64,000 bases of DNA, taken from Shigella phage ChubbyThor. The number at the start of each line of letters is the position of its first letter. Position 1 is the first letter of the stretch. The stretch lies in the sequence record OL615013. One strand, 5' to 3'. Of the stretch, positions 5,288-63,989 are shown one piece after another. The position numbers were made by a program, and so were the translations under genes. A model generated the notes under the pieces. It searched no databases and was not told the DNA's origin. It saw only the letters and a list, made by a program, of their open reading frames with translations.

Positions 5288-5318
5288 AAAGGAGCTGCTA
5301 TTATAGCAGCCCCTTCAT
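5288..5318 (-). terminator. intrinsic terminator hairpin (GCUGCUAUAAUAGCAGC) followed by U-run on minus-strand RNA
   Basis: Perfect 7-bp palindrome gctgcta-tta-tagcagc between stop of 5344..6210 gene and kinase start; U-tract on minus strand. Confidence 0.55.
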
Positions 5319-5343
5319 CTATTGAACAGCTTCTGAACTTAAA

Positions 5344-11131: not shown

Positions 11132-11721
11132 TATACACCTCTGTTGAAGTCTGGATTATTCTCAATGAAGTAAGAGCCACAAGCCATTATCGCAAACGAA
11201 TCCACGAGGTCATCGATTGGCTTGGGATCCTTAACTTCCAACATGTCCATTATACCGCGCATATTAACATTGAACAGCGACTCGAAGTGAGCGATCATGG
11301 CGTGTTTATCCGCGTTGCCCTTGTCGGTGAACATCTTCTTCACATGGGATGGCGTCACGATCTGGAAGTCGAAATTGTTACGGCGCAGGGCTTGCTTCAA
11401 CAGAGAGGTATTCTCTGCGGTCTGGCAGATGTTGTTGGAGTTCTTAGAGTTGCCCATGGCATACCCTTCAAGAGTGATCGCATCCGGCTTCTCGGTCAAC
11501 AGGACAGCCTCAGCCCATTTACAGATGTTATAGAAGCGCTCTTCTGGGGTCTCCCACTTCGGCTGCTTCATGATGAGGATGTTCTGGCGAATCTGAGTGC
11601 AGTACTTCTCCACAGTATAATATGCGTAGAAGCGCAGATGATCAAAATCAAGAGGGTCCTTGTCATCCCAGAAGCACAGGGATGGGCAACCATAGGAGTA
11701 GTCGATTCCGCAATATTTCAT
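11131..11721 (-). CDS. RuvC-like Holliday junction resolvase (RNase H fold)
   Basis: 196 aa; MKYCGIDYSYG (first catalytic Asp), ITLEGY (Glu), ...DDLVDSFAIMA (C-terminal acidic pair) in RuvC order. Confidence 0.5.
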   Translation of the reverse strand: MKYCGIDYSYGCPSLCFWDDKDPLDFDHLRFYAYYTVEKYCTQIRQNILIMKQPKWETPEERFYNICKWAEAVLLTEKPDAITLEGYAMGNSKNSNNICQTAENTSLLKQALRRNNFDFQIVTPSHVKKMFTDKGNADKHAMIAHFESLFNVNMRGIMDMLEVKDPKPIDDLVDSFAIMACGSYFIENNPDFNRGV

Positions 11722-16549: not shown

Positions 16550-17011
16550 CTACTCCGCCAGGGTGATCACAACCATATTTAAGACTGTGTCGATAGCTCG
16601 GCCTGTTTCCTCTTCATGGAGGGTTTCGGCGCGGAGGTGTACGTCGGTGATGAAATTGTCGATGTGCATTGACGTCAGGTACGGGCGGTGCTGGCTGACC
16701 GGACGGTTGATCAGTACATAGTTGCGCAGTGTGTTGAAGTCCTGCTGAGAGCACCCTGTGGTGTCGATACGAAGGAAGCGTTCATTGTGGCTTGTCTTCA
16801 GTTCAGTTACTTTGCCGAGGTAGACCAGAGGTCCATTGCGACCGATACGGAACATAACATCAACAACAGACTTGAAGATTTCGCGTTCAATCAGTGCGGT
16901 GGGTGACCAGCAGATCTCTTCTTTGTCGTCGGCGTACAGGGTGTCGATCACCAGAGGGAGTTGAATGTAACCGAAGTTGTGCAGTGGATTGGTGAGTACT
17001 TTGTTTGTCAT
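16550..17011 (-). CDS. hypothetical protein
   Basis: ORF track 153 aa; preceded by conserved leader TTGAAAGCGGGAACTATATC-ATG. Confidence 0.5.
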   Translation of the reverse strand: MTNKVLTNPLHNFGYIQLPLVIDTLYADDKEEICWSPTALIEREIFKSVVDVMFRIGRNGPLVYLGKVTELKTSHNERFLRIDTTGCSQQDFNTLRNYVLINRPVSQHRPYLTSMHIDNFITDVHLRAETLHEEETGRAIDTVLNMVVITLAE

Positions 17012-17087
17012 GATATAGTTCCCGCTTTCAATTTGTGGCGAATGCCAATGAATTACTGGGAAGTATAAGCGCAGGGATTATAGAAGT

Positions 17088-17110
17088 AAAGCCCCTCATT
17101 GAGGGGCTTT
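17088..17110 (-). terminator. stem-loop (AAAGCCCCTCattGAGGGGCTTT), probable terminator of nrdH transcript
   Basis: 10-bp perfect stem between nrdH stop and next gene. Confidence 0.5.
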
Positions 17111-17116
17111 GACAGA

Positions 17117-20871: not shown

Positions 20872-21531
20872 TTATTGACTTACAAACTCTAACCACTCTG
20901 GGTCGGCTTTGGGATTCCACCCAGATTTAAATTTATTAATCATTGTGAAATGCGGAGTCGTCTTGTTTTTGAACCCAAACGCTTTCGCCATGAACGTGCA
21001 ACCTTTTTGGTTGCACAACCACCAATCATAATATTCGTCGGCGCGTTTCCATATATCCAAAGACTCTTTGGTGGCATGGTTACTTTCCCAAGGTTGTTTT
21101 ATCACGCAGATATTGTTTTCCTTCAAACGTTTAGACTGTATTTCCCGCAAATGAGGATACTTTACATGTGTCTGTTTCATTTGATCGGAACGAATTTTCC
21201 TCAAATTAGGGTTGTCTTTGTACATCTGTTTATTGGAATGAGAAAGTTTTCTCCGCAACCAACCGAATAATTTGTTACAAGATCTACCGGAGAATTCATT
21301 GTTTACGCACATAGCATTAGCTGCAAATGCTAATTTGAAATTTTTGGGATATATTTTGACTAACAATTGATGTGCCAAATAATGTTCTTCTGGTGTCAAC
21401 TCCACCAGATTATGTTTGTCATCTTTCCCTCCCATACATCTAGGGATAATATGGTGGGTTTCAGAATAACCAACCAATGAACGGGTCTTGGCTCTTTGTA
21501 TCAGAGAGTCATAGATATTTTGATAATTCAT
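20872..21531 (-). mobile_element. free-standing HNH homing endonuclease gene
   Basis: 219 aa; ETHHIIPRCMGG...HN...EEHYLAH HNH motif; AT-richer than flanks; sits between nrdA and phoH. Confidence 0.7.
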
Positions 21532-21600
21532 GATTAGTCTCGGAACATATTATACGCCGCCCTCGTAGATTGAAGGCGGCGGGGAGTGTTGGTGAGTTAC

Positions 21601-23954: not shown

Positions 23955-24443
23955 TTAGGCCAGTTTGCTCACCAGAGCTTCAACTGCGTCGGCGCTCAGT
24001 TTACCCATTTTGACGTACTGGGTTTTGGCTTCGCCGCCTGCTGCTTTCACGATGTCTTCGTTTGCGTAGCCTTTCTTAGGGAAGACCATCACAGAGAAGG
24101 AACCGTTGTTCAGCGGGTTCAGCTGGATGCGACCTTTACCAACTACGATGGTGCCGTAAGTTTCGGTGTTCGCTTCGACGACGTGGATGTCGTGACCCAG
24201 GTCTTTCAGCATGCCAACTTTGTCGGCGGTCTTAGCAACCACAGCTTTGTCAACCACAACCTGCTCTACCAGGGTGAAGCCGTTAGTCGCTTTCACTTTG
24301 CCGTTCAGCAGGTTCATGAAGGAAGTTTTACCACCAGTGAAGCCAGCTGCCTGAGCGATGCGGAACATTTCAACTTTAGCAACTTCGGTGTTCAGTTCGA
24401 AAGAGATGGTGCCGTTGGTGATCAGAGTTTTGGTAGTAGCCAT
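23955..24443 (-). CDS. hypothetical protein, probably highly expressed early product
   Basis: ORF track 23955..24479; start at MATTKT (~24443); strong promoter and leader upstream. Confidence 0.5.
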   Translation of the reverse strand: MATTKTLITNGTISFELNTEVAKVEMFRIAQAAGFTGGKTSFMNLLNGKVKATNGFTLVEQVVVDKAVVAKTADKVGMLKDLGHDIHVVEANTETYGTIVVGKGRIQLNPLNNGSFSVMVFPKKGYANEDIVKAAGGEAKTQYVKMGKLSADAVEALVSKLA

Positions 24444-24516
24444 GATGTAATTCCTCATAATGTAGTTGGTTCGTTTCACTTTTCATTCGGCGGTGTGTTG
24501 CCGCCCTATGTGAACT

Positions 24517-24546
24517 ATAATAGTGCATCATTATTGAAGAGTAAAG
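24517..24546 (-). promoter_or_regulatory. sigma70/T4-early-type promoter (TTTACT-17 nt-TATTAT) with AT-rich UP-like tract
   Basis: Minus-strand motif ~80 nt upstream of the 24443 start. Confidence 0.5.
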
Positions 24547-29943: not shown

Positions 29944-30315
29944 TCATGCCCAGGTGGATTTACTTACGGAAAGGTAGTGATCTTTAGACTCGATCAGTTC
30001 TTTACCGGATTTGACGATGGCGTCCATGGAGTAGAATCCAATCTGGAACCCATCTTTCAGGAAGATCGTGTGGTGCATGTGGTCAACTGGCAAACCATTC
30101 ACTGGGGAATTTTTGAAATTCCAACCTTCAGCCAGGAATTTTGCGTGGACCGCTTTCATCGTAGCGTCGCGATCACCGTTTGTCATGATACCCATTTCAA
30201 CGTTGTCTGCCAAACCACGGTCAACAATCTGACCTTCGAGGGTTACAACGCCGAAGCCAAGGGATTCAAGGATAGACATTTCTGGTTTGGTGAAATCTGT
30301 TTTGATCGCGTTCAT
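29944..30315 (-). CDS. hypothetical protein
   Basis: ORF track 29944..30336; first 7 codons are the conserved leader (TTGAAACGAAGGAACTATATC), true start ATG ~30315. Confidence 0.5.
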   Translation of the reverse strand: MNAIKTDFTKPEMSILESLGFGVVTLEGQIVDRGLADNVEMGIMTNGDRDATMKAVHAKFLAEGWNFKNSPVNGLPVDHMHHTIFLKDGFQIGFYSMDAIVKSGKELIESKDHYLSVSKSTWA

Positions 30316-30389
30316 GATATAGTTCCTTCGTTTCAAGTTGGTGTCGTACTGCTTATGGAATGAAGTATAGGGAAGGATATTGAAGAAGT

Positions 30390-30410
30390 AAAGGGGCGAA
30401 AGCCCCTTTT
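30390..30410 (-). terminator. intercistronic hairpin/terminator (AGGGGCgaaaGCCCCT with flanking A/T runs)
   Basis: Between stop at 30423 and conserved leader of next gene. Confidence 0.5.
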
Positions 30411-30422
30411 ATTGAATTATTT

Positions 30423-31675: not shown

Positions 31676-31774
31676 GATGGCGTTCCTTATGTGGATTGTC
31701 GACTTGCAGCTCGCTTGAGCCTCCTGACAGGGGTTAAAAGATAAAGGGCACGTGGTATTTAGTGCCCTTTGGCC

Positions 31775-40873: not shown

Positions 40874-41557
40874 TTACACCTCCACCGCGTGAGACTTCAG
40901 GAGTTCATCAATCGCTTTCTGACCCATGTAGGAGAATGGGGTGCGCTGGTAGAATGCCCACAGAACCAACTGAACTACAGCGCGGGAACGGGTTTCGGCT
41001 CGCATCACCAGGTCGCTGAAATGAGGAGACTCAGCCGTCCATTGGATCTCTTCGCCCAGGTCTTGATTACAGGTCACAGAGATGCGGAACTTGTTGCACA
41101 GATTGTCGACTTCTTTGTACGCATCGGTAGACACCCGAAGTTGGTCTGCATGCGCCCATGGTGTCGTGACGATTCTTTCTCCCATCACTTTATCAGAGAT
41201 AAACCAATCAATGGATTCAACAAACTTGCCGAAATGGTCGATGCGATAAATGCAGTCTCCCCCTTCCATAGAACGCATGGCATGATAGCGAGCGTCGATT
41301 TCGTTGTTGTGCATCGCGTTGAAGTCGATGAACACGCGACGCGCCAACACAACATCTTCCGGCTCCAGAGGGATGTATTCCCCTTCGTTGCTAGACCTCC
41401 GGATGTTCGGATAATGTAGAATGCCGCTTAAATGCCCAGTGCAATATACATAACGAGGTCCAACACCCCCGACACGAGCATGAGCGACATAGGATGGTTC
41501 TGTGAATCGCAAGTGGCCTTGATCGGCACCGACGATAATAGAATAAAGGTTTTCCAT
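40874..41557 (-). CDS. hypothetical protein
   Basis: ORF track 227 aa; preceded by conserved leader ...TTTGAGAGAACTATATC-ATG. Confidence 0.5.
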   Translation of the reverse strand: MENLYSIIVGADQGHLRFTEPSYVAHARVGGVGPRYVYCTGHLSGILHYPNIRRSSNEGEYIPLEPEDVVLARRVFIDFNAMHNNEIDARYHAMRSMEGGDCIYRIDHFGKFVESIDWFISDKVMGERIVTTPWAHADQLRVSTDAYKEVDNLCNKFRISVTCNQDLGEEIQWTAESPHFSDLVMRAETRSRAVVQLVLWAFYQRTPFSYMGQKAIDELLKSHAVEV

Positions 41558-41614
41558 GATATAGTTCTCTCAAATGAAAGGGCGACCTTATGATAAGCCG
41601 CCCTGGATTATTGA

Positions 41615-42523
41615 TTATTGGAAATCGCCGACATACATGTTCAGCTTGTCATCCCAGTTCAGAACGATGCGGATCGTTCCGGAATCTTCAGGGAATGACA
41701 GCTTAGAGCACATGGCGCGATTGACATAAGTCCCGCTCTGGTTGACGTTGTAGTCCTTGCCTTGCATAATACCGAAGCGCTTGAAGTCGCGAGTGACCAT
41801 CATGTTCAACGTGGTCCACGGAATGATGTCACGCAAGGCTTTACACAGGATGATCTTGCCATCCGACCTGAACGACACAAACAGCTCGTTGGCGATACGA
41901 CGGCGAGCAGGCGGCTCGAGTTCGCGCAGGGAGATAAATTCAGAGGGATCGTCCAATGCACCCAGGGTGATCATGTCTTCGCGAACTTTATTGACAATTT
42001 CAGTTACTGCTGACACGACTTCAACTGCCGGATTCGTCTTAAATGGCTCAACAGTCGTGGACATCTTGGATACAGACATCCCGTTGCCGTTGCGCTTCTC
42101 TGCATATTGCTCGACGGACTTGTCGCTCACCGGAGGCAGTTTGGTGGCAGGAGTTATGACCGGGCTTGCATCTGGTTTCGCCTTTGGGGTACTCCGAGCC
42201 GCACGCAGCTTTTCCTGGGCTTCCAGAATGCGCTCTTGACGAGAAAGTGGAGCCTTTGGGGTGATCTTCGTACTGAAATCTGAAACGCCGACCCAATCAC
42301 CCTGGTCATTACGCTTGGCGACCAGAGTCAGTTTGTGGATGATGCCCTGAAGTTTGCTCTCACGCAAGTTGTCGGCATACCAGAACTTCGCGCCCATCTC
42401 GAACTTCTCGGCGAAGATCACGCGAGCGTCTTCGTGTACCAACATAACTTTGGCTGTGTTGGGGGCAAAAGCCTTATTCTTTTCGATAATCGCCGCAGCG
42501 ATTGATTTGGTCAGGAGCATCAC
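41615..42523 (-). CDS. hypothetical two-domain protein with Ala/Pro/Lys-rich linker
   Basis: ORF track 302 aa. Confidence 0.45.
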   Translation of the reverse strand: MMLLTKSIAAAIIEKNKAFAPNTAKVMLVHEDARVIFAEKFEMGAKFWYADNLRESKLQGIIHKLTLVAKRNDQGDWVGVSDFSTKITPKAPLSRQERILEAQEKLRAARSTPKAKPDASPVITPATKLPPVSDKSVEQYAEKRNGNGMSVSKMSTTVEPFKTNPAVEVVSAVTEIVNKVREDMITLGALDDPSEFISLRELEPPARRRIANELFVSFRSDGKIILCKALRDIIPWTTLNMMVTRDFKRFGIMQGKDYNVNQSGTYVNRAMCSKLSFPEDSGTIRIVLNWDDKLNMYVGDFQ

Positions 42524-42571
42524 AGTGTATTCCTTCAGTTCACAATGTAGGGCTAAATTTTAACCCGAAAC

Positions 42572-43657: not shown

Positions 43658-44488
43658 TCATTGGAATTCAACTCCATACCTTTCAAGCCATTTATCACAA
43701 GTTAAAGGATCCCAACCATTATCTAACCTTCGAATAATCGGATTCACTTTAGCCCAGATCCCAGAAGAATTGGAACCGAATACTTCTTTAATGGCTTCTC
43801 CCTTGGTCTTACCTTTCAATATATGGTAATGTATGTGGGCTGCCCAACACCACCAATTATCCCTATCCGGAGTCCATCTTGGCTTCTCCCAAGGCATTTG
43901 CTCTCTGGAGGTTCTGGTAAAAGCCTCAACACGTTTCCTTTCTTGGTCCGATGTCAATTTATTGGTTAGGCTCTTTCCATAACAGTGATGGTGCTCTCCT
44001 CTCTTGACACCTGCATTTCTCTTCGCAAAGAATTGTTTCAGTTCAGGGTCTTCCTTGCGCTTGTCTTCATAGAATTTCAGCAGTGAATCTGAAGTTGCAT
44101 CTTTGGCTGCCTGAGACTTCTTTTTACCATACATCGGGTTGTTAGCCCCTCTGTTCTCTTCGGACAATCTCGCGGCGTATTTCTTACGCATTTTGGCGAA
44201 GAGATGTGAATTAACTCTGTGGCCATTCCTTCTCAGGATCATCAGCGCCTTTACCATACACGTATCCGGCAGCGCCAGAGCGAGACACACGTGAGCAATA
44301 TAGTGGACGCGGTGTGGTAATTTGATTAAATTGTTCTTATCTTTCTTGAATTGAGGAAATAGGGCGGCTGGAAGGATGTGGTGAAATTCTCCTTCCCCGT
44401 TGTAATCTGAATAGGCTGAAAGCAATTTCACATATTTGCCTACAAAGTGCGGTTTGCCACCTATTGTTAAAAGATATTCTCTTTTCAT
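43658..44488 (-). mobile_element. free-standing HNH homing endonuclease gene
   Basis: 276 aa; EFHHILPAALFP...HRVHYIAH HNH motif plus basic repeat region. Confidence 0.65.
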
Positions 44489-45368: not shown

Positions 45369-45739
45369 AACGTACCCCCAACAGAGATCATGAACTCTTC
45401 TTCAATGGTCGTGACAGGGCGGCGGTTGCGGGTTTCGATCATGAAGCCCCAGCCGCCGTCGGCGACGTTGCCAAAGGTCTTGACGCCAAAGGTCTTCTTC
45501 CCGTTGGAGCAGGCATAGAAGTCCAAGATGAACGGACTGCCCTGATTGTCGATCCCACGGTTTACACCATCCGCTACACAGCGCTCAATCATCTTCCCGT
45601 TCTTATACAGAACGAGGTCTTGACCATATGCCTTGAAAGCATAAACGCCGTTGGTAGACACTCCGGTGATGACAGGAGGAGCGGAAACAGCAGAGAAGGA
45701 AGCGCCCAGCAGGGCAACGGCGAGGATTAACTTTTTCAT
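45365..45739 (-). CDS. secreted protein (signal peptide), function unknown
   Basis: ORF track 45365..45931; start at MKKLILAVALLGASFSAVSA (~45739); conserved leader upstream. Confidence 0.5.
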   Translation of the reverse strand: MKKLILAVALLGASFSAVSAPPVITGVSTNGVYAFKAYGQDLVLYKNGKMIERCVADGVNRGIDNQGSPFILDFYACSNGKKTFGVKTFGNVADGGWGFMIETRNRRPVTTIEEEFMISVGGTL

Positions 45740-45763
45740 GATATAGTCTCTTGGTTTCAAATG
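45740..45763 (-). promoter_or_regulatory. conserved translation-initiation leader (TTTGAAACCAAGAGACTATATC-ATG)
   Basis: Member of a recurrent leader family seen also at ~17012, 30316, 41558, 46299, 46598. Confidence 0.55.
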
Positions 45764-45785
45764 GGCGGGGTAATCATACCCCGCC
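45764..45785 (-). repeat. palindromic stem-loop element family A copy 2 (GGCGGGGTAAT-CA-TACCCCGCC)
   Basis: 9-bp stem; near-identical to copies at ~10072 and ~46325. Confidence 0.65.
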
Positions 45786-45791
45786 GTGGGT

Positions 45792-46298
45792 TTATAGGGT
45801 AACAAGTGATACGGTAAAAACCATCGTCCCGTCTGTTGCCATTTTTCTTGAAACTGGTATGACGCGAGGCTGGCAGAATATCCATTCTTTCTCCATGGAC
45901 GCCAAGTCCAGCATATCCATTTCTGATTCATCGCCTTTGTTCACAAATTTTTCTAGAGAACCATAGACATTAAGCCCCTCCGGGAGTCCGTTTCGATGTT
46001 TGTAACAAATGCGGGCAACAGCTTTGGTTCCGTACGATTTAGAAAATTGTTTGGCCACATGCTTCAGTTCACTGAAGCTAAGACAAGAATCCCATGTCTG
46101 GAACATGTCGCCTCGTTCAAACAACATCTCTAAACGCGCAACGTCCTCCTTAGGCAGCCCGCGATAAAGTGTGGTCGTCTGTGGCTCGCGTAATTCTTGC
46201 ACCAGATCACGGACGGCAGGGGAAACAGTACCGGGGCGCATGATGTGGGACTTATCATGGGCGAGGTAAAATAAATCTTGAATTTGTTGATCGGTCAT
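45792..46298 (-). CDS. candidate mono-ADP-ribosyltransferase (R-S-E type), low confidence
   Basis: 169 aa (start MTDQQIQ); ordered motifs TTLYRG (aromatic-Arg), WDSCLSFS (STS-like), GDESEMD/MEKEWIF (ExE candidates). Confidence 0.3.
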   Translation of the reverse strand: MTDQQIQDLFYLAHDKSHIMRPGTVSPAVRDLVQELREPQTTTLYRGLPKEDVARLEMLFERGDMFQTWDSCLSFSELKHVAKQFSKSYGTKAVARICYKHRNGLPEGLNVYGSLEKFVNKGDESEMDMLDLASMEKEWIFCQPRVIPVSRKMATDGTMVFTVSLVTL

Positions 46299-46322
46299 GA
46301 TATAGTTCCTGCATTTCAAATA
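46299..46322 (-). promoter_or_regulatory. conserved translation-initiation leader (TTTGAAATGCAGGAACTATATC-ATG)
   Basis: Same leader family. Confidence 0.55.
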
Positions 46323-46324
46323 GA

Positions 46325-46342
46325 CGGGGTAATCATACCCCG
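46325..46342 (-). repeat. palindromic stem-loop element family A copy 3 (CGGGGTAAT-CA-TACCCCG)
   Basis: Identical core to copy 2. Confidence 0.65.
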
Positions 46343-46357
46343 CCCAAAGTTATAGAA

Positions 46358-46597
46358 TTAACTGATGTGCTTCAGAAGAGCGAAGAGGATCGCGGCCTTG
46401 GCTTTCACCTTGCCGACGACGCCTGTCTCAACATCGACTTCTTCAGCAACCCACTCTTTGCCCTTCTTGCTGATGATAACGTCACGGCGCTGGGCATATA
46501 CCTCTTTGGTCGCATACACACGACGGAACCCTTTAGCGCGGAGCAAGCCCCAATTGCGATCAATCTCTACTGAAGTTTCGACCATTTTGTTCTTCAT
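46358..46597 (-). CDS. hypothetical basic protein
   Basis: ORF track 79 aa; leader variant GTTGAAAGGTAAGATTATATC-ATG. Confidence 0.45.
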   Translation of the reverse strand: MKNKMVETSVEIDRNWGLLRAKGFRRVYATKEVYAQRRDVIISKKGKEWVAEEVDVETGVVGKVKAKAAILFALLKHIS

Positions 46598-46720
46598 GAT
46601 ATAATCTTACCTTTCAACCTGGTGAACCCCATCGTTCGCCAGTTATTGAATAATAGGATATTCCTTAGAGGAAGTAAACCCCTAAAAGTAAAAATCCCCA
46701 ACAAACGTTGGGGACTTCTG

Positions 46721-52373: not shown

Positions 52374-52483
52374 AATGTAGCCTCATGGTGTATTGTACAG
52401 CCGTATTATACTGTGATGCACAAATTGAAACACCCAGCAAATATACTGGGCGTCATTGATATTGAAGGAGTTTGATAATTCAG

Positions 52484-54136: not shown

Positions 54137-56155
54137 TTAGAACACAACTTTCACAGTGCGGTTGAACGAGCCGCTCACCTTCACGAACACGTGGTTGCGT
54201 TGGGTGGTAGAGAAGCCCAGACCGGACAGCTGCTCAGTGCTTGGCTGTACTTTAATCTTACCACCTAACATTTCAAAAACCTTGCGGTGTTTATCAAGTT
54301 CCGGCTTCAGATATTCGTTGTAGAAGCCACGGGTGCCGACAGGGTTAGCACAACCTTCCAGGATGAAGAACACGTGCTTGTTGCCCGTCTGCTCGCCGTC
54401 CCAATGGTTTGGTGAGTTCAGAACCAGCTGTACCTTCTGGAAGACGGAGGTCTTGATGCCCCAGATTTCCTGAGAGCGAGCGTCGTCTTTCAGGGTAGAA
54501 CTGATGTCGACCACCTGACCAGCGCGTACCTGAACCACAACAGCCAACGTGCGGTCTTTGTTTCCCAGACCAGGATGCGAGAAGCGCTTGGTCTGGCCTT
54601 TGTATTCAACTTCGATTTCGAAGCCCACATCGCAGGTTTCGCGCTTGCTGTAGTTGGTGACATAGAACTCATAGTTCCCGTCACGCAGCTTGCATTCATC
54701 GCTGAAGAAGATGTTCTCCACCGGACGGCGGTTCGGGTCAATACCGTCCATACCGTTCATGTCGATGTCCAGGGTTGCACCAGTTGCCGAACGACGGTTG
54801 TTGAAATACACGTGGTTGTGAAGAGGATCGTTCAGGCTCAGATCCAGGTCGTCGTTGTTATGCCAAGCCAGCGACACACGGAGGAAGCTGTCGACGTTGC
54901 CGCCTGCGGTCTTCACGCGCTCTTTGATGGAGTCGGCCACTTCACCGTTGTATGACCAGCTGAAGCCGTTGTTCCACTTGAACAGGTTAGGAGCACCTGC
55001 CGTAGCCGGAGCGATCAGGGACATCAGGTTGCCAGTGTGAGAGTTTTCAACCAGCACTTCCAGGGAATGCGCCTTTGGCAACACGTTGGTCAGGAAGTCG
55101 TCGATGGTGATCTCTTCAACCTTGTCCAGGGACTTGGTCGGAGTCTTCACTTCAGACGCCAGCTGAGCAAACGGGTCCATCTTCTTCTGCGCTGCCAGGT
55201 CGGCGAACAGAACGTTGTTGATGGTCAGATCGTCATACACGGCATAACGGCGACCCAGTGAATCGGTCAGACCCAGCGCTTCGACTTCTTTCTGCGCGTT
55301 TTCAATCATGGACTTCGTGACCAGCGCGGTTGGGCGCTTGTAGTTCGTCGGAGCGACTTTGGCTTCAAAGGACTTCACGGCGGTTTCCAGATCCCGACCT
55401 TCATTGAGGTCTACCAACAGAGAGCCAATCACGGTATTGCGGATGCCGTGAGGGGTGTGTCCGTTTGCACGGTAGCCAGTACGCCAAGCCCACAGAGCGC
55501 GTTTCTCTTCTGCAGTTTGTTCGTACAGGGTCTTGCTCGTCACGAACGCCTGTACTGCTGCTTTGTGCTCTTCACCACGATACAGAGAATTCTGATCAAT
55601 CAGTTCCAGAACGATTTCGGCCGATTCCAGAGACAGTTCACGCAGGCCGCGCTCAAACACTTCAATCGCCTGGCGGATTTCACCCTTCTTAGAAGCGATG
55701 ACATCAGCCCGCAGAACATAGCTGGGCAGCAGGTCGGTGTGGAAGTGGTTGTAGGTGCGGACATTACCGTCTTTCATTTCGTGATTCGACTCAACACCGA
55801 CTTTCTTGGTATCGTTGAAGTACACGTCGACGATTGCGTGTTGCTTGACATACGCAGACAGCGCCGCGGCGACAACGTCGTATTCGTTACCCAGCTGAAT
55901 GTTATCCCAGATAGAGATCACGTTCAGGTCGGCGTCGATGGTCACCACACCGCCGATGTTACGGATGAATTGTTTACAGCAGGTGCAGTCGTGCTCGGTG
56001 CGCTCACGGTAGAGCGGGTTGGTGCCAGCAGGGAAAGAAGACAGATACAGATCCCACAGAGCATCTTTATCGATGTTGGTCATGAACAGACCAGTTGCTG
56101 ACATGGCCAGCACATTATTGTTTACAGCTACTGCGAAGGGCTTAAATTCTGACAT
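54137..56155 (-). CDS. large hypothetical protein (672 aa)
   Basis: ORF track; no motif recognised by eye. Confidence 0.55.
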   Translation of the reverse strand: MSEFKPFAVAVNNNVLAMSATGLFMTNIDKDALWDLYLSSFPAGTNPLYRERTEHDCTCCKQFIRNIGGVVTIDADLNVISIWDNIQLGNEYDVVAAALSAYVKQHAIVDVYFNDTKKVGVESNHEMKDGNVRTYNHFHTDLLPSYVLRADVIASKKGEIRQAIEVFERGLRELSLESAEIVLELIDQNSLYRGEEHKAAVQAFVTSKTLYEQTAEEKRALWAWRTGYRANGHTPHGIRNTVIGSLLVDLNEGRDLETAVKSFEAKVAPTNYKRPTALVTKSMIENAQKEVEALGLTDSLGRRYAVYDDLTINNVLFADLAAQKKMDPFAQLASEVKTPTKSLDKVEEITIDDFLTNVLPKAHSLEVLVENSHTGNLMSLIAPATAGAPNLFKWNNGFSWSYNGEVADSIKERVKTAGGNVDSFLRVSLAWHNNDDLDLSLNDPLHNHVYFNNRRSATGATLDIDMNGMDGIDPNRRPVENIFFSDECKLRDGNYEFYVTNYSKRETCDVGFEIEVEYKGQTKRFSHPGLGNKDRTLAVVVQVRAGQVVDISSTLKDDARSQEIWGIKTSVFQKVQLVLNSPNHWDGEQTGNKHVFFILEGCANPVGTRGFYNEYLKPELDKHRKVFEMLGGKIKVQPSTEQLSGLGFSTTQRNHVFVKVSGSFNRTVKVVF

Positions 56156-56270
56156 GATGTAGTCTTCCTGTTTCAGTTCAAATGTGCGCCCCGTTTGCCA
56201 GGGCGCTTCGTTTAAGTGAGGTCAATAATACGTTGAAAAAAGTTATTGAAGAATGAAGTAAAGGGAATCT

Positions 56271-58461: not shown

Positions 58462-58857
58462 TTATTCGCTTTTGGCCTTTGTAGGCCGGATAATGTATTT
58501 TGGAACCAGCTTCCATTCAGGAACCTGATCGTGTTTAACCACTTTAATGCGTGACATATCGGCGGCTTCGGTGACCTGCTCGGGATGAATGACCTTCACC
58601 ATGTTCCACTGCTCAAGCAGCTTGATGATGCGGTTCATCCTCAGGACATCTTCGCGGTTAAACCCGTTGTAATGCCCGTCCAGCATAAACAGATGCTTGA
58701 AGTGGACGATATAATACTTGCCATACTTATGAAGAATATGACAAGTCTGATACAGAGTATTCGGCTCTTGGCGCGTGTTTACCCCAATTCGGCTCAGTGT
58801 TTCCTTGATCCCCAGGAATATTCCTGGCCGATCTTGGTTCAATTGAACTTCAACCAT
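58462..58857 (-). CDS. regA: RegA translational repressor
   Basis: LYQTCHILHKYGKYYIVHFKHLFMLDG and PEWKLVPKYIIRP match T4 RegA (LYQSCHILQKKGLYYIVHFKEMLRMDG, HEWKLVPKYTIG); start at internal Met (track 58462..58926). Confidence 0.8.
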   Translation of the reverse strand: MVEVQLNQDRPGIFLGIKETLSRIGVNTRQEPNTLYQTCHILHKYGKYYIVHFKHLFMLDGHYNGFNREDVLRMNRIIKLLEQWNMVKVIHPEQVTEAADMSRIKVVKHDQVPEWKLVPKYIIRPTKAKSE

Positions 58858-58955
58858 ACAATCAACGATGCTGGCCTCATCGTTGACGGCTGAAATGTTC
58901 AATATGTCTAGCGTATTGCGCGCCATGACTCATTCCCCTTTTACAATAGTTTGAA

Positions 58956-59382: not shown

Positions 59383-60372
59383 TCACTTCCACTTGATGTT
59401 GAGCATGACGTTTGTCAGGAAAAACACAGCATGCAGCCAGACATCGCCGACCTGACGGTGTTCAATCTGAGACTGACCACATACGCATACCAGATCAGGG
59501 ATAGACTCATTCTGAACCAGCATCGGCTTCTCTTTATCCTGTGGTACACAGAACTGGAAGAAGCGGGAATAGAAGTCTTCGGTGATGTAGTTCTGGTTGT
59601 CAGTCACCCACTGCTTCATGCCAGCCCAGTCATTGGCTTTCAACATAGCAACCAGCGTACCGAGGTCAGCCGCTTTCAATACAGCCAGAGCGCGTTCGTC
59701 GATCTTGCCATAGGTGGTGACGTTGTCCTGTAGGGCACCCATGATGCGGCGGTTGTCAGGGAAGTTGCGCTTGACGATGGCGGCCAACACCTGAGGAACG
59801 AACTCAACACCTTCGGCGCGAAGGATTTCAACGCAACGGAGGCAGAACTTGTTCTGAACTTCCAGTGCTTCCTGCTCGTTCCAGATAAAGTCGATCTCAC
59901 GGCAACGGGAGCGCAGAGGTTCGTTGACACGCTGCTTGGCGTTGGTGGTCAGAATGAACGAGCAGTTCTTGGAGACCTTCTCTACGATACCCTTCAGAGA
60001 CTCCTGCGCCGCCATAGACAGGCGCTCCACTTCGTCGAGGATAACGACTTTGCGACCACCGAAGACACTCACGCCAGTAGAGTACTGAATCACGCGATCA
60101 CGGATAACATCAATGCTGTTGTCCAGGGATGCGTTGATCAACAGAGGTTGCTTACAGCCGATTTCGTTACACACGGCCAGAGCAGAGGTGGTCTTGCCAG
60201 TACCAGGTCCAGGGGAGTAGAACAGCATCGAAGGGATGTTGCCGTTGCCACTTGTGATATAACCGTGGATTTTAGCGCGGACGTCCTGGGGGATGATGAT
60301 CTCATCCAGGTTGTCTGGACGATATTTGTTTTCCCATGCGTACTGGTCGGAAACGATAGTGATATTAGACAT
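59383..60372 (-). CDS. 44: clamp-loader ATPase gp44 (AAA+)
   Basis: Walker A SPGPGTGKTT, DEVERL Walker B, SRC motif (LRSRCREI); start MSNITIV (track 59383..60426). Confidence 0.85.
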   Translation of the reverse strand: MSNITIVSDQYAWENKYRPDNLDEIIIPQDVRAKIHGYITSGNGNIPSMLFYSPGPGTGKTTSALAVCNEIGCKQPLLINASLDNSIDVIRDRVIQYSTGVSVFGGRKVVILDEVERLSMAAQESLKGIVEKVSKNCSFILTTNAKQRVNEPLRSRCREIDFIWNEQEALEVQNKFCLRCVEILRAEGVEFVPQVLAAIVKRNFPDNRRIMGALQDNVTTYGKIDERALAVLKAADLGTLVAMLKANDWAGMKQWVTDNQNYITEDFYSRFFQFCVPQDKEKPMLVQNESIPDLVCVCGQSQIEHRQVGDVWLHAVFFLTNVMLNIKWK

Positions 60373-60451
60373 TTCAGCCTCTTGTAGAAGAATCATTTCA
60401 AACGGGCGGGAAAGCCCCGCCCACACATTATAGCATCAGGCTGGAGATTGA

Positions 60452-63334: not shown

Positions 63335-63365
63335 CATACAAAATCTCCCAAGGAATATGGGGTAT

Positions 63366-63989
63366 TTAGCGATCCGGCCAGACTCCGTTCTGTTCTTTAT
63401 CCATGCGATGGTACAGACGAACACGCTCAAACATCTTTGTCAGGATGTCATCGCGGTTGAACTCTATGATGGTTGGCGTCAACGATGACTCGTTGGCAAT
63501 CACATTGATGAGGCGGGTGATCTTGACACCGAACATCTGCTGGAACATAACAGAGTACAAGCACAGCTGGATACTGTAGTCCTCGATCATTCCCCGCGTC
63601 TTCATGGTGTTCGATGTCTTGAAGTCGATGATAGCAGGCTTACCCTCATAAACCCCGATAAGGTCCACTCGACCTGCGAGACCAAGCACCTCGCTATATA
63701 ACGGGATCTCCTGAGCATAGATCTTTGTCATCTTGTTCAGATAGGGGAACAGCTGCTTGAACATGAACATGTATTCGCCAGCCGCTTCCAACACTTCTTT
63801 CATTGGGCGGTTCTTCAAATACAGTTCACATGCAAGGTGCAGCTTCTCCCCTCGGTCAGCGCAACGCATGGTCTCAAGGTCGGCGGCCTCTGCACCCAGC
63901 TTCTCCCTCCAAGCCTCAAGCCATTCATGATCACCAGTACGCCCCAGCATCGTCGTGACAGACGTCAGCTTGACACCAGTTGGTGACAC
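63366..63989 (-). CDS. putative PD-(D/E)xK nuclease (RecB/Cas4-like exonuclease fold); may extend beyond window end
   Basis: 207 aa; GRVDLIGVYEGKPAIIDFKTS (D...D/E-x-K); ORF start within 11 nt of window end. Confidence 0.35.
   Translation of the reverse strand: MSPTGVKLTSVTTMLGRTGDHEWLEAWREKLGAEAADLETMRCADRGEKLHLACELYLKNRPMKEVLEAAGEYMFMFKQLFPYLNKMTKIYAQEIPLYSEVLGLAGRVDLIGVYEGKPAIIDFKTSNTMKTRGMIEDYSIQLCLYSVMFQQMFGVKITRLINVIANESSLTPTIIEFNRDDILTKMFERVRLYHRMDKEQNGVWPDR

Follow-up and report, generated by a model that had tools for sequence, protein, structure and literature searches.

The leader at 46298 and its copies

The 168-aa gene that starts with the ATG at position 46298 on the minus strand is adjoined by a leader of the sequence TTTGAAATGCAGGAACTATATC. 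In relatives the gene is annotated as 'RNA polymerase ADP-ribosylase', no Pfam match was obtained for it here, and a search for loci related to the 168-aa protein returned four loci. In an alignment of seven sequences, made up of this leader and its orthologues in six related genomes or contigs, the leader varied at 4-5 positions, with flanks about 95% identical. The gene lies in a 64-kb stretch of DNA, the whole of which was analysed and is referred to below as the window. The window has a G + C content of about 50% and carries nearly all of its genes on the minus strand. Leaders of the same kind, including variant and degenerate forms, were found at the following places:

46299-46320, minus strand: leader TTTGAAATGCAGGAACTATATC, adjoining the ATG at 46298 of the 168-aa gene
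45740-45761, minus strand: leader TTTGAAACCAAGAGACTATATC, 5′ of the ATG at 45739 of a 124-aa gene
46598-46618, minus strand: leader GTTGAAAGGTAAGATTATATC, 5′ of the ATG at 46597 of a 79-aa gene
41558-41574, minus strand: short leader TTTGAGAGAACTATATC, 5′ of the ATG at 41557 of a 227-aa gene
30316-30336, minus strand: leader TTGAAACGAAGGAACTATATC, 5′ of the ATG at 30315 of a 123-aa gene
17012-17032, minus strand: leader ATTGAAAGCGGGAACTATATC, 5′ of the ATG at 17011 of a 153-aa gene, at a deletion junction relative to phage MK-13
56156-56182, minus strand: variant leader TTTGAACTGAAACAGGAAGACTACATC, 5′ of the ATG at 56155 of a 672-aa gene
24444-24479, minus strand: tandem variant, a degenerate GTGAAACGAACCAACTACATT-ATG followed 15 nt later by GAGGAATTACATC-ATG (24443)
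42521-42543, minus strand: degenerate leader GTGAACTGAAGGAATACACTGTG, 5′ of the ATG at 42520 of a 301-aa gene

The six leaders of the original prediction and its variant at 24443 were all present as quoted on the minus strand; the copies at 56156-56182 (TTTGAACTGAAACAGGAAGACTACATC) and 42521-42543 (degenerate) are additional to them. The two ATGs of the tandem variant share one reading frame. The description of the genes behind the leaders as unrelated hypotheticals also held, in that their proteins showed neither pairwise similarity nor a Pfam match. No conservation was seen 3′ of the ATG among the leader genes, and eight of the window proteins were found to be mutually unrelated and free of Pfam matches; the 124-aa protein starting at 45739 has a signal-peptide-like N-terminus. 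Rfam at gathering thresholds and a tRNA scan gave no matches in the window.

Source of the window and comparison genomes

For most of its length the window shares 96-98% identity with Shigella phage MK-13 (Agtrevirus, Ackermannviridae), its other relatives being Ag3, SKML-39, the Dickeya Limestone-type phages and the Salmonella Kuttervirus phages. It is assigned to an Agtrevirus-like (Vi1-like) phage of the Ackermannviridae. The genomes used for comparison were those of MK-13 (complete) and Det7 (Kuttervirus, complete), together with 100 kb of Serratia phage phiMAM1 (Miltonvirus). Two insertions specific to the window relative to MK-13, at 20872-21531 and 43658-44488, contain homing-endonuclease-like genes and are not events of the cassette type described below.

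Frequency and consensus of the leader

The sequence ACTATATC occurs five times in the window, always on the minus strand, against 0.88 occurrences expected, and at least five occurrences were obtained in 0 of 100 shuffles; TATATCATG has seven occurrences on the minus strand and none on the plus strand. A weight matrix of 14 nt was built from the leader with the start codon left out. At a threshold of at least 14 bits it found six matches in the window, each followed directly by an ATG. In the complete genome of MK-13 the matrix gave 20 matches of at least 16 bits, compared with 0.85 in shuffled genomes; an ATG adjoins 18 of these 20, and at 16 of them a coding sequence is annotated to start. 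The leader is found only just 5′ of start codons and only on the coding strand.

An alignment of 37 copies from MK-13 and Det7, anchored at the ATG, gave the consensus TTGAA(-21)-N4-AGGAAC-TAYATC-ATG, with a leader of about 21 nt. TTGAA occupies positions -21 to -17, a loosely conserved stretch -16 to -13, AGGAAC -12 to -7 and TAYATC -6 to -1; positions -3 and -2 are invariant in the 37 copies. The RNA form is UUGAAAYGAAGGAACUAUAUC. The family consensus is matched best by the 30315 leader TTGAAACGAAGGAACTATATC, and a second allele, GGAAATACATC, was found repeatedly, in several copies. A search for an antisense or small RNA partner found no complementary copy of the leader beyond chance matches with three mismatches within coding sequences.

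Properties of the start region

The Shine-Dalgarno sequence of the leader is AAGGA, which pairs with UCCUU of the 16S rRNA 3′ end at -5.7 kcal/mol and lies 8 nt from the AUG. Pairing with 16S rRNA 5-10 nt from a genuine start, as in a Shine-Dalgarno initiation region, is therefore present, and the pairing is weaker than that of the T7 gene 10 site (-8.8 kcal/mol) or of a GGAGG site in the window (-10.2 kcal/mol). The T7 gene 10 leader (AAGAAGGAGATATACATATG) is an example of a strong phage ribosome-binding site. Both leaders have a purine-rich Shine-Dalgarno sequence followed by an A+U-rich spacer of the ATAT/ACAT type (GAAGGAAATACATCATG, cf. GAAGGAGATATACATATG), but the Ackermannviridae leader has the weaker Shine-Dalgarno sequence (-5.7 versus -8.8 kcal/mol), lacks epsilon-like complementarity to 16S rRNA and is repeated on about 10% of the genes of a genome. 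For additional 16S complementarity of the epsilon type, the longest pairing run in the leader was 9, no better than in shuffles. The start regions with a leader are predicted to be more open than those of other genes, with a mean unpaired probability of 0.58 versus 0.49 (p = 2e-4).

Could the conserved block instead be the coding sequence of an N-terminal peptide, M-K-x-R-N-Y-I-M, begun at an in-frame TTG at -21? The TTG is in frame in several copies, ORF finders reach back to it, and the TAT/TAC and AAC/AAT variants would be synonymous. Several copies, however, have an in-frame TGA at -15 to -13 (e.g. TTGAATTGAAGGAAC and TTGAAATGAAGGAAA); copies and orthologues differ by 1-nt indels, as in GGACTATATC versus GGAACTATATC and in the window 41557 leader versus its MK-13 orthologue (124792), where the MK-13 leader has a 1-nt deletion; and no Shine-Dalgarno sequence is found upstream of the TTG. 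A peptide encoded by the block therefore has next to no probability, and a coding extension from the TTG was ruled out by the in-frame TGA codons and the frame-breaking indels. Because of these two features the leader block is non-coding. It had been predicted that the motif makes ORF calls over-extend their N-termini, and this is the case: the TTG at -21 does lengthen ORF calls, and it is not a real start.

Hairpins and promoters upstream of the leaders

The elements predicted upstream of the window leaders are as follows:

46321-46346, minus strand: GC-rich hairpin GGGCGGGGTATGATTACCCCGTC, directly 5′ of the 46298 leader (MFE -18.8 kcal/mol, z -5.8)
45764-45785, minus strand: GC-rich hairpin GGCGGGGTATGATTACCCCGCC, directly 5′ of the 45739 leader (z -5.3)
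41579-41604, minus strand: terminator-like hairpin AGGGCGGCTTATCATAAGGTCGCCCT, directly 5′ of the 41557 leader (z -4.9)
56186-56206, minus strand: hairpin GCGCCCTGGCAAACGGGGCGC, 5′ of the 56155 variant leader (z -4.5)
17088-17110, minus strand: terminator-type hairpin AAAGCCCC..GGGGCTTT, overlapping the -35 box and located at the gp106 deletion junction
30387-30413, minus strand: hairpin AAAAGGGGCTTTCGCCCCTTT, overlapping the -35 box of the 30315 promoter
46695-46714, minus strand: hairpin TCCCCAACGTTTGTTGGGGA, upstream of the 46597 promoter
46650-46678, minus strand: sigma-70-like early promoter TTTACT-N17-TATTAT, 52 nt upstream of the 46597 start
30364-30392, minus strand: sigma-70-like early promoter TTTACT-N17-TATACT, 48 nt upstream of the 30315 start
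17062-17090, minus strand: sigma-70-like early promoter TTTACT-N17-TATACT, 50 nt upstream of the 17011 start
24517-24545, minus strand: sigma-70-like promoter TTTACT-N17-TATTAT, upstream of the 24443 variant leader

That a GC-rich stem-loop directly precedes each leader proved true of part of the set. Strong hairpins stand before 41557, 45739, 46298 and 56155 (z -4.5 to -5.8), and those at 46298 (GGGCGGGGTATGATTACCCCGTC) and 45739 (GGCGGGGTATGATTACCCCGCC) are near-identical; 46597 and 24443 are preceded by weak ones (z about -2.3); and 17011 and 30315 have little or no hairpin at this place, with a sigma-70-like promoter about 50 nt upstream instead.

The promoter (TTTACT-N17-TATACT or TTTACT-N17-TATTAT) is present upstream of four of the nine window leaders, the other copies being without it, and the window promoters were also found by a promoter scan. 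In MK-13, a regular-expression search for TTTACT-N17-TATAYT 48-52 nt from the start found the promoter at 5/21 leader genes versus 0/186 others (Fisher p = 7e-6). Some of the TTTACT promoters driving leader genes have TTCAAT within their spacer. The leader genes of MK-13 cluster in a handful of units, each headed by a near-consensus promoter to which a terminator-type hairpin is fused (GGGGCTTTACTTC...TATACTTC); genes further along the units have a hairpin followed by an (A)TTTGAA... leader, or the leader alone. Judging by the promoter type, the leader units would be immediate-early. The hairpin TCCCCAACGTTTGTTGGGGA and the 46597 promoter form a unit of about 75 nt, which in Det7 is directly repeated around an extra gene.

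Distribution and conservation

The leader precedes 21 of the 207 coding sequences of MK-13, all of them small genes of unknown function save one annotated as an ADP-ribosylase. In Det7 the consensus is the same, and most of the roughly 18 copies stand at orthologous positions. In phiMAM1 the leader takes the variant form CTTGAAAYGAAGGAACTTTAC, in which CTTGAAAYGAAGGAAC is kept and several copies share another spacer, CTTTAC(A). A 31-nt consensus query found 729 places in 285 phage records, essentially all of them of Ackermannviridae, with hosts in Salmonella, Klebsiella, Escherichia, Dickeya, Shigella, Serratia, Enterobacter, Erwinia and Providencia. Across these records, the leader is family-wide and essentially restricted to the Ackermannviridae. 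A scan of IMG/VR for exact 14-mers returned mostly single chance matches in unrelated contigs.

Between MK-13 and Det7 the upstream cassettes are 85-88% identical and the first 60 nt of the downstream coding sequences about 70%. Extra purifying selection on the leader relative to the remaining cassette was not seen in this comparison (87.6% versus 85%).

Of such elements, the genome papers on AG3 and LIMEstone report just promoters and terminators, and the promoter motifs published for these genomes are distinct from the leader, which is a separate element at the start codon. Our literature search, made with motif strings and for regulatory motifs of Viunalikevirus/Ackermannviridae, found no published description of the leader; it included Kuttervirus transcriptomes, and no transcriptome was found for the Ackermannviridae. 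The element has apparently not been described so far.

Recombination junctions

The window is without MK-13 genes gp105 and gp106. At the gp105 site the flanks overlap by 24 nt in GGAACTATATCATG (window 17007-17030), inside the 17011 leader, and at the gp106 site the junction lies in the hairpin-promoter repeat with an overlap of 29 nt (17084-17112). Det7 is without gp083, the junction being the repeated GAAGGACTATATCATG inside a leader. It is also without gp174, where the remaining leader, GAAGGAAATATATC, is a chimera of the MK-13 leaders GAAGGAAATACATC and GAAGGAACTATATC with its breakpoint between GAAGGAAATA and TATCATG; the crossover therefore occurred inside the leader.

Gene replacements were seen at the same element. 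The gene 3′ of the 45739 leader encodes 124-125 aa in the window, MK-13 and L129, and an unrelated product of 92 aa in Det7, L130 and L131; homology between the window and Det7 at this locus stops 3 nt into the ORF, right after the ATG. Dickeya phage JA15 has the same hairpin and leader (...GCAGGAACTATATC ATGACC), followed by denV in place of the 168-aa gene. This denV lies between two leaders, and homology restarts at the core of the next one. Det7 also has an extra promoter-leader-gene unit flanked on both sides by the 75-nt direct terminator-promoter repeats.

Altogether, five junctions between related genomes fall in the leader and two in the terminator-promoter repeat. Genome-wide, the enrichment is modest: MK-13/Det7 homology breakpoints were found within 25 nt of 7/21 leader starts versus 25/186 others (p = 0.026), and within 5 nt of 4/21 versus 15/186, which is not significant (p = 0.11). 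Given the junctions observed, the leader is best read as a recombination linker, whose 14-24-nt identities would be used by phage recombination.

A probable start-codon module of an early-gene cassette

Modular regulatory cassettes copied around the genome had been one of two explanations offered for the leaders, and they are well supported: repeated terminator/promoter/leader units have the leader as their 3′ end, and the junctions of gene presence/absence and replacement fall inside the leader or the promoter repeat. We consider it probable (about 0.6) that the leader is the translation-initiation module of an early-gene cassette, present in about 20 copies per Ackermannviridae genome, and a recombination linker as well. 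The full cassette would consist of a GC-rich terminator-type hairpin, a TTTACT-N17-TATACT promoter of sigma-70 type, a 5′ UTR of about 45 nt and the 21-nt leader, and downstream genes of the same early units would reuse hairpin plus leader or the leader alone. On the mRNA the leader would offer a modest Shine-Dalgarno sequence, AAGGA, in an open A+U-rich context, so that host ribosomes may load on each small early ORF without a phage factor. In the DNA the direct repeats of leader and promoter would serve the phage recombination system as short homologies, at which whole ORFs could be precisely deleted, inserted or exchanged with a working start region kept by each product. Common descent, recombination among cassettes and selection for a working start region would then account for how alike the copies are.

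A similar organisation has been described in the T4-type phages RB49 and phi1, whose PeSLs (promoter-early stem-loops) are mobile regulatory cassettes (Arbiol et al. 2010, PMC2839356). PeSLs consist of a sigma-70 promoter and a stem-loop with a Shine-Dalgarno sequence and start codon at the end, stand before ORFans and are shuffled as modules (PMC2839356). The units described here are likewise short, intergenic and present in tens of copies, with a strong sigma-70-like early promoter (at 4/9 window leaders) and a stem-loop, here the predicted hairpins, including the predicted terminators at 17088-17110 and 30387-30413. They too end in a Shine-Dalgarno sequence and start codon (an ATG after 18/20 strong MK-13 matches), mostly before small ORFans in plastic regions, where the products have no Pfam match and no mutual similarity and several genes have been replaced. 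Insertion, deletion and replacement junctions between close relatives fall in the repeats in both systems, here five in the leader and two in the terminator-promoter repeat with the modest genome-wide enrichment given above. The likeness is close in organisation and behaviour, as judged by setting the units beside the PeSL descriptions, and the phages belong to different families, Ackermannviridae here and Straboviridae for the PeSLs. PeSLs are defined by their repeated promoter and stem-loop and have a generic Shine-Dalgarno sequence, whereas here the 21-nt start-codon leader is the most conserved and most often recombining piece, which also occurs promoter-free inside polycistronic units, as hairpin plus leader or leader alone.

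Several observations weigh against the cassette model. The 'early' status of the genes comes from the promoter type only, the breakpoint enrichment at leader starts is modest (p = 0.026 at 25 nt and p = 0.11 at 5 nt), and the leader is conserved no better than the remaining upstream cassette. Moreover, the conserved TTGAA at -21 and the fixed TAYATC spacer are not obviously needed by a generic start region, and TTGAAAYGAAGGAAC persists in a phage as distant as the Miltonvirus phiMAM1, where the spacer is altered in several copies at once; this looks like selection at the sequence level or co-evolution with a factor.

Alternative explanations

The other explanation offered with the original prediction was a shared operator for a translational repressor, with RegA as the candidate. 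RegA is indeed encoded in the window:

58462-58926, minus strand: regA (translational repressor), PF01818, E = 1.9e-34, its own start region without the leader

The window protein matches T4 RegA (1REG) with E = 3.8e-26, and T18, R21 and W81 are conserved. On this explanation, which we regard as unlikely, the leader would be an RNA operator for a phage translational repressor, most obviously RegA (58462-58926). RegA binding to the unstructured segment from Shine-Dalgarno sequence to AUG in about 20 early mRNAs, with their joint shut-off as the protein accumulates, is equally doubtful. The known RegA sites, found in about 30 early and middle mRNAs, either overlap the AUG or directly adjoin it on the 5′ side; their sequence is rich in A+U and free of structure, and with RB69 RegA the spacer between Shine-Dalgarno sequence and AUG is protected (PMC3014915). 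The leader resembles the T4 and RB69 operators in these respects: its block at -12 to -1 has the position of such a site, next to the start codon in many early mRNAs, is A+U-rich and predicted to be open (0.58 versus 0.49), and a clear RegA homologue is encoded nearby. It is also confined to one phage family, and in phiMAM1 the spacer consensus differs together with the RNA-binding helix of RegA (FLGIKETLSR versus FFMITETLTR). The preservation of TTGAAAYGAAGGAAC across distant genera and the concerted change of spacer and RegA helix 1 in phiMAM1 keep the RegA idea alive; the phiMAM1 pattern would equally follow from turnover of copies by recombination.

The operator is less favoured because the classical T4 targets regA, 44, 45, 62 and rIIA are without the leader in the window and MK-13. 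No leader was found in the start regions of the window genes at 58926, 59378, 60372 and 61120 or of MK-13 rIIA, and the matrix score of the rIIB start was below the leader threshold. The leader does not resemble the consensus of T4 (aaAAUUGUUAUGUAA) or RB69 (AAUAAUAAUAA) and has neither poly(A)-UU-AUG nor UAA repeats. T4 operators are little conserved, whereas the Ackermannviridae motif is far more conserved and, with 21 nt, longer than the footprint of about 12 nt; nothing is conserved 3′ of the AUG; and two RNA-contact residues of T4 RegA are altered (K14 to G, F106 to H). In addition, no trans-acting factor is needed to explain why the copies are so alike, since the recombination evidence already does so. 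The specificity of RegA could be different in the Ackermannviridae, and the RegA explanation is compatible with a role of the leader in cassettes and recombination. In its broader form, to which we give a low probability, UUGAAAYGAAGGAAC(UAYAUC), 16-21 nt, would be a dedicated RNA operator of about 20 immediate-early mRNAs in all Ackermannviridae, read by a phage factor. That this factor would be RegA, or another protein or nuclease, turning early translation off in one step is just as tentative. If true, a sharply defined operator common to a whole regulon would be known for the first time for a RegA-type repressor, with a genus-specific spacer that tracks repressor specificity.

It is more doubtful still, and improbable on present evidence, that the leader is an endoribonuclease site at which early mRNAs are cut in or near the Shine-Dalgarno sequence. 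The precedent is T4 RegB with ribosomal protein S1, which cuts an unusually long motif containing the Shine-Dalgarno sequence of early mRNAs, GG*AGRAYARAA; on its own RegB recognises GGA, with an influence of the bases that follow on the 3′ side (PMC3014915). Like that site, the leader is a long motif around the GGA of a Shine-Dalgarno sequence, common to many early but not late mRNAs; its GGA is invariant, is followed by a conserved A/U-rich stretch and is restricted to promoter-proximal early units. Its tetranucleotide, however, is GGAA or GAGA and not GGAG, the 3′ sequence (CUAUAUC or AUACAUC) does not fit RAYARAA, and tblastn against the window, MK-13 and Det7 detected no RegB homologue (best E-value 6).

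The motif could also act at the DNA level, as a phage-specific promoter of the middle type or as the operator of a DNA-binding regulator, and TTGAAA (as upstream box) and TATATC (as -10) are superficially like -35/-10 hexamers. In T4, middle promoters are made up of an upstream activator box and a -10 element. A DNA-level role is very improbable here, as the two blocks stand 4-14 bp apart, depending on the copy, and never 16-18, a transcription start about 7 nt after TATATC would be inside the ORF, the sequence is non-palindromic, and the motif is always directly followed by an ATG on the coding strand, with GGA at Shine-Dalgarno distance. A promoter or bipartite DNA site was ruled out by the variable spacing and the constant adjacency to ATG.

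Significance for the Ackermannviridae

In the Ackermannviridae, a family that is widely used in phage therapy and biocontrol, the leader offers an easy way to recognise by sequence about 20 genes per genome that are probably immediate-early and nearly all of unknown function. Knowledge of it corrects start calls that run back to the in-frame TTG. The junctions provide concrete cases of the exchange of small accessory genes by crossover within a standard ribosome-binding leader, over 14-24 nt, and with them the 'mobile regulatory cassette' idea of the PeSLs, described for T4-type phages and centred on the promoter, comes to cover another phage family and the start region itself. If a trans-acting factor reads the leader, these genes would form a co-regulated early regulon, and the leader would be a compact, portable expression and regulation tag for phage engineering.

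Second cassette class and other promoter-type motifs

The motif TTCAAT-N13-15-TATAAT, published as a Vi1-like motif, gave 4 matches in the window against 0.03 expected. These sites constitute a second cassette class in the window, alongside the first, in which a hairpin and a TTTACT-N17-TATACT promoter precede the leader (the repeated start-region element of about 21 nt). The sites are:

5300-5326, minus strand: motif with its TATAAT box straddled by a GC-rich inverted repeat
11249-11274, minus strand: motif
21549-21574, minus strand: motif with its TATAAT box straddled by a GC-rich inverted repeat
52405-52429, minus strand: motif

One subclass of PeSLs, the mobile promoter-early stem-loop cassettes of T4-type phages, likewise carries an inverted repeat across TATAAT; here the repeat is GC-rich and found at 5300-5326 and 21549-21574. 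The 14 nt spacing of the TTCAAT/TATAAT motif is shorter than a normal sigma-70 promoter needs. A late-promoter-type motif, CTAAATACCCC, was also found on the minus strand at 63359-63369 and 31752-31762, one copy being exact and the other having a single mismatch; for the window by itself, two copies do not exceed the chance expectation.

HDV-family ribozymes have been reported in Ackermannviridae (PMC13635239; bioRxiv 10.64898/2026.02.27.708514), and an Rfam scan at the gathering threshold found none in the window. Outside the window, annotated CDS are almost absent from a stretch of some 4 kb surrounding the tRNA genes in the record of the closely related phage MK-13 (59359-63357), and the CDS gaps of 1.1 and 2.6 kb there are possible room for non-coding RNAs.

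Comparison with related phages

Two minus-strand genes, 20872-21531 and 43658-44488, have no counterpart in MK-13, their surroundings being collinear. One of them, which lies between the nrdA promoter and nrdA, has a weak HNH match (E = 0.003), and the other a NUMOD3 motif (E = 5e-5). Both are probably homing endonucleases, and the origin of these two indels therefore differs from that of the leader-bounded indels.

The leader gene at 45792-46298 (minus strand, 168 aa) is a putative 'RNA polymerase ADP-ribosylase' by the annotation of its RefSeq relatives; its protein had no Pfam match at E <= 0.01. Its first ~60 nt (46239-46298) are near-invariant across all relatives (L129-L132 and Det7), L132 included, whose protein has an overall identity of only 56%. 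This makes the gene look like a mosaic whose recombination breakpoint lies ~65-100 nt into the ORF.

Two phage database records labelled 'Enterococcus phage Efm 3-10' (OR844942.1 and OR844945.1) show 72-84% identity to this Ackermannviridae region, and the deposit is probably mislabelled or contaminated.

Decayed and partial leaders

At 24444-24479 (minus strand) a tandem pair of leader-like blocks was found, each closed by an in-frame ATG (24458 and 24443), and the upstream block has lost its Shine-Dalgarno sequence (GAACCAAC). The pair looks like a decayed duplication of the leader, and either ATG may be the true start. Upstream of the gene 44 homologue (59383-60372, minus strand), in the region 60373-60420, the leader's 5′ half (GTTTGAAATG) comes directly after a hairpin and is itself succeeded by an unrelated Shine-Dalgarno region. 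This arrangement suggests that 'hairpin-TTTGAA' is able to exist as an independent unit.
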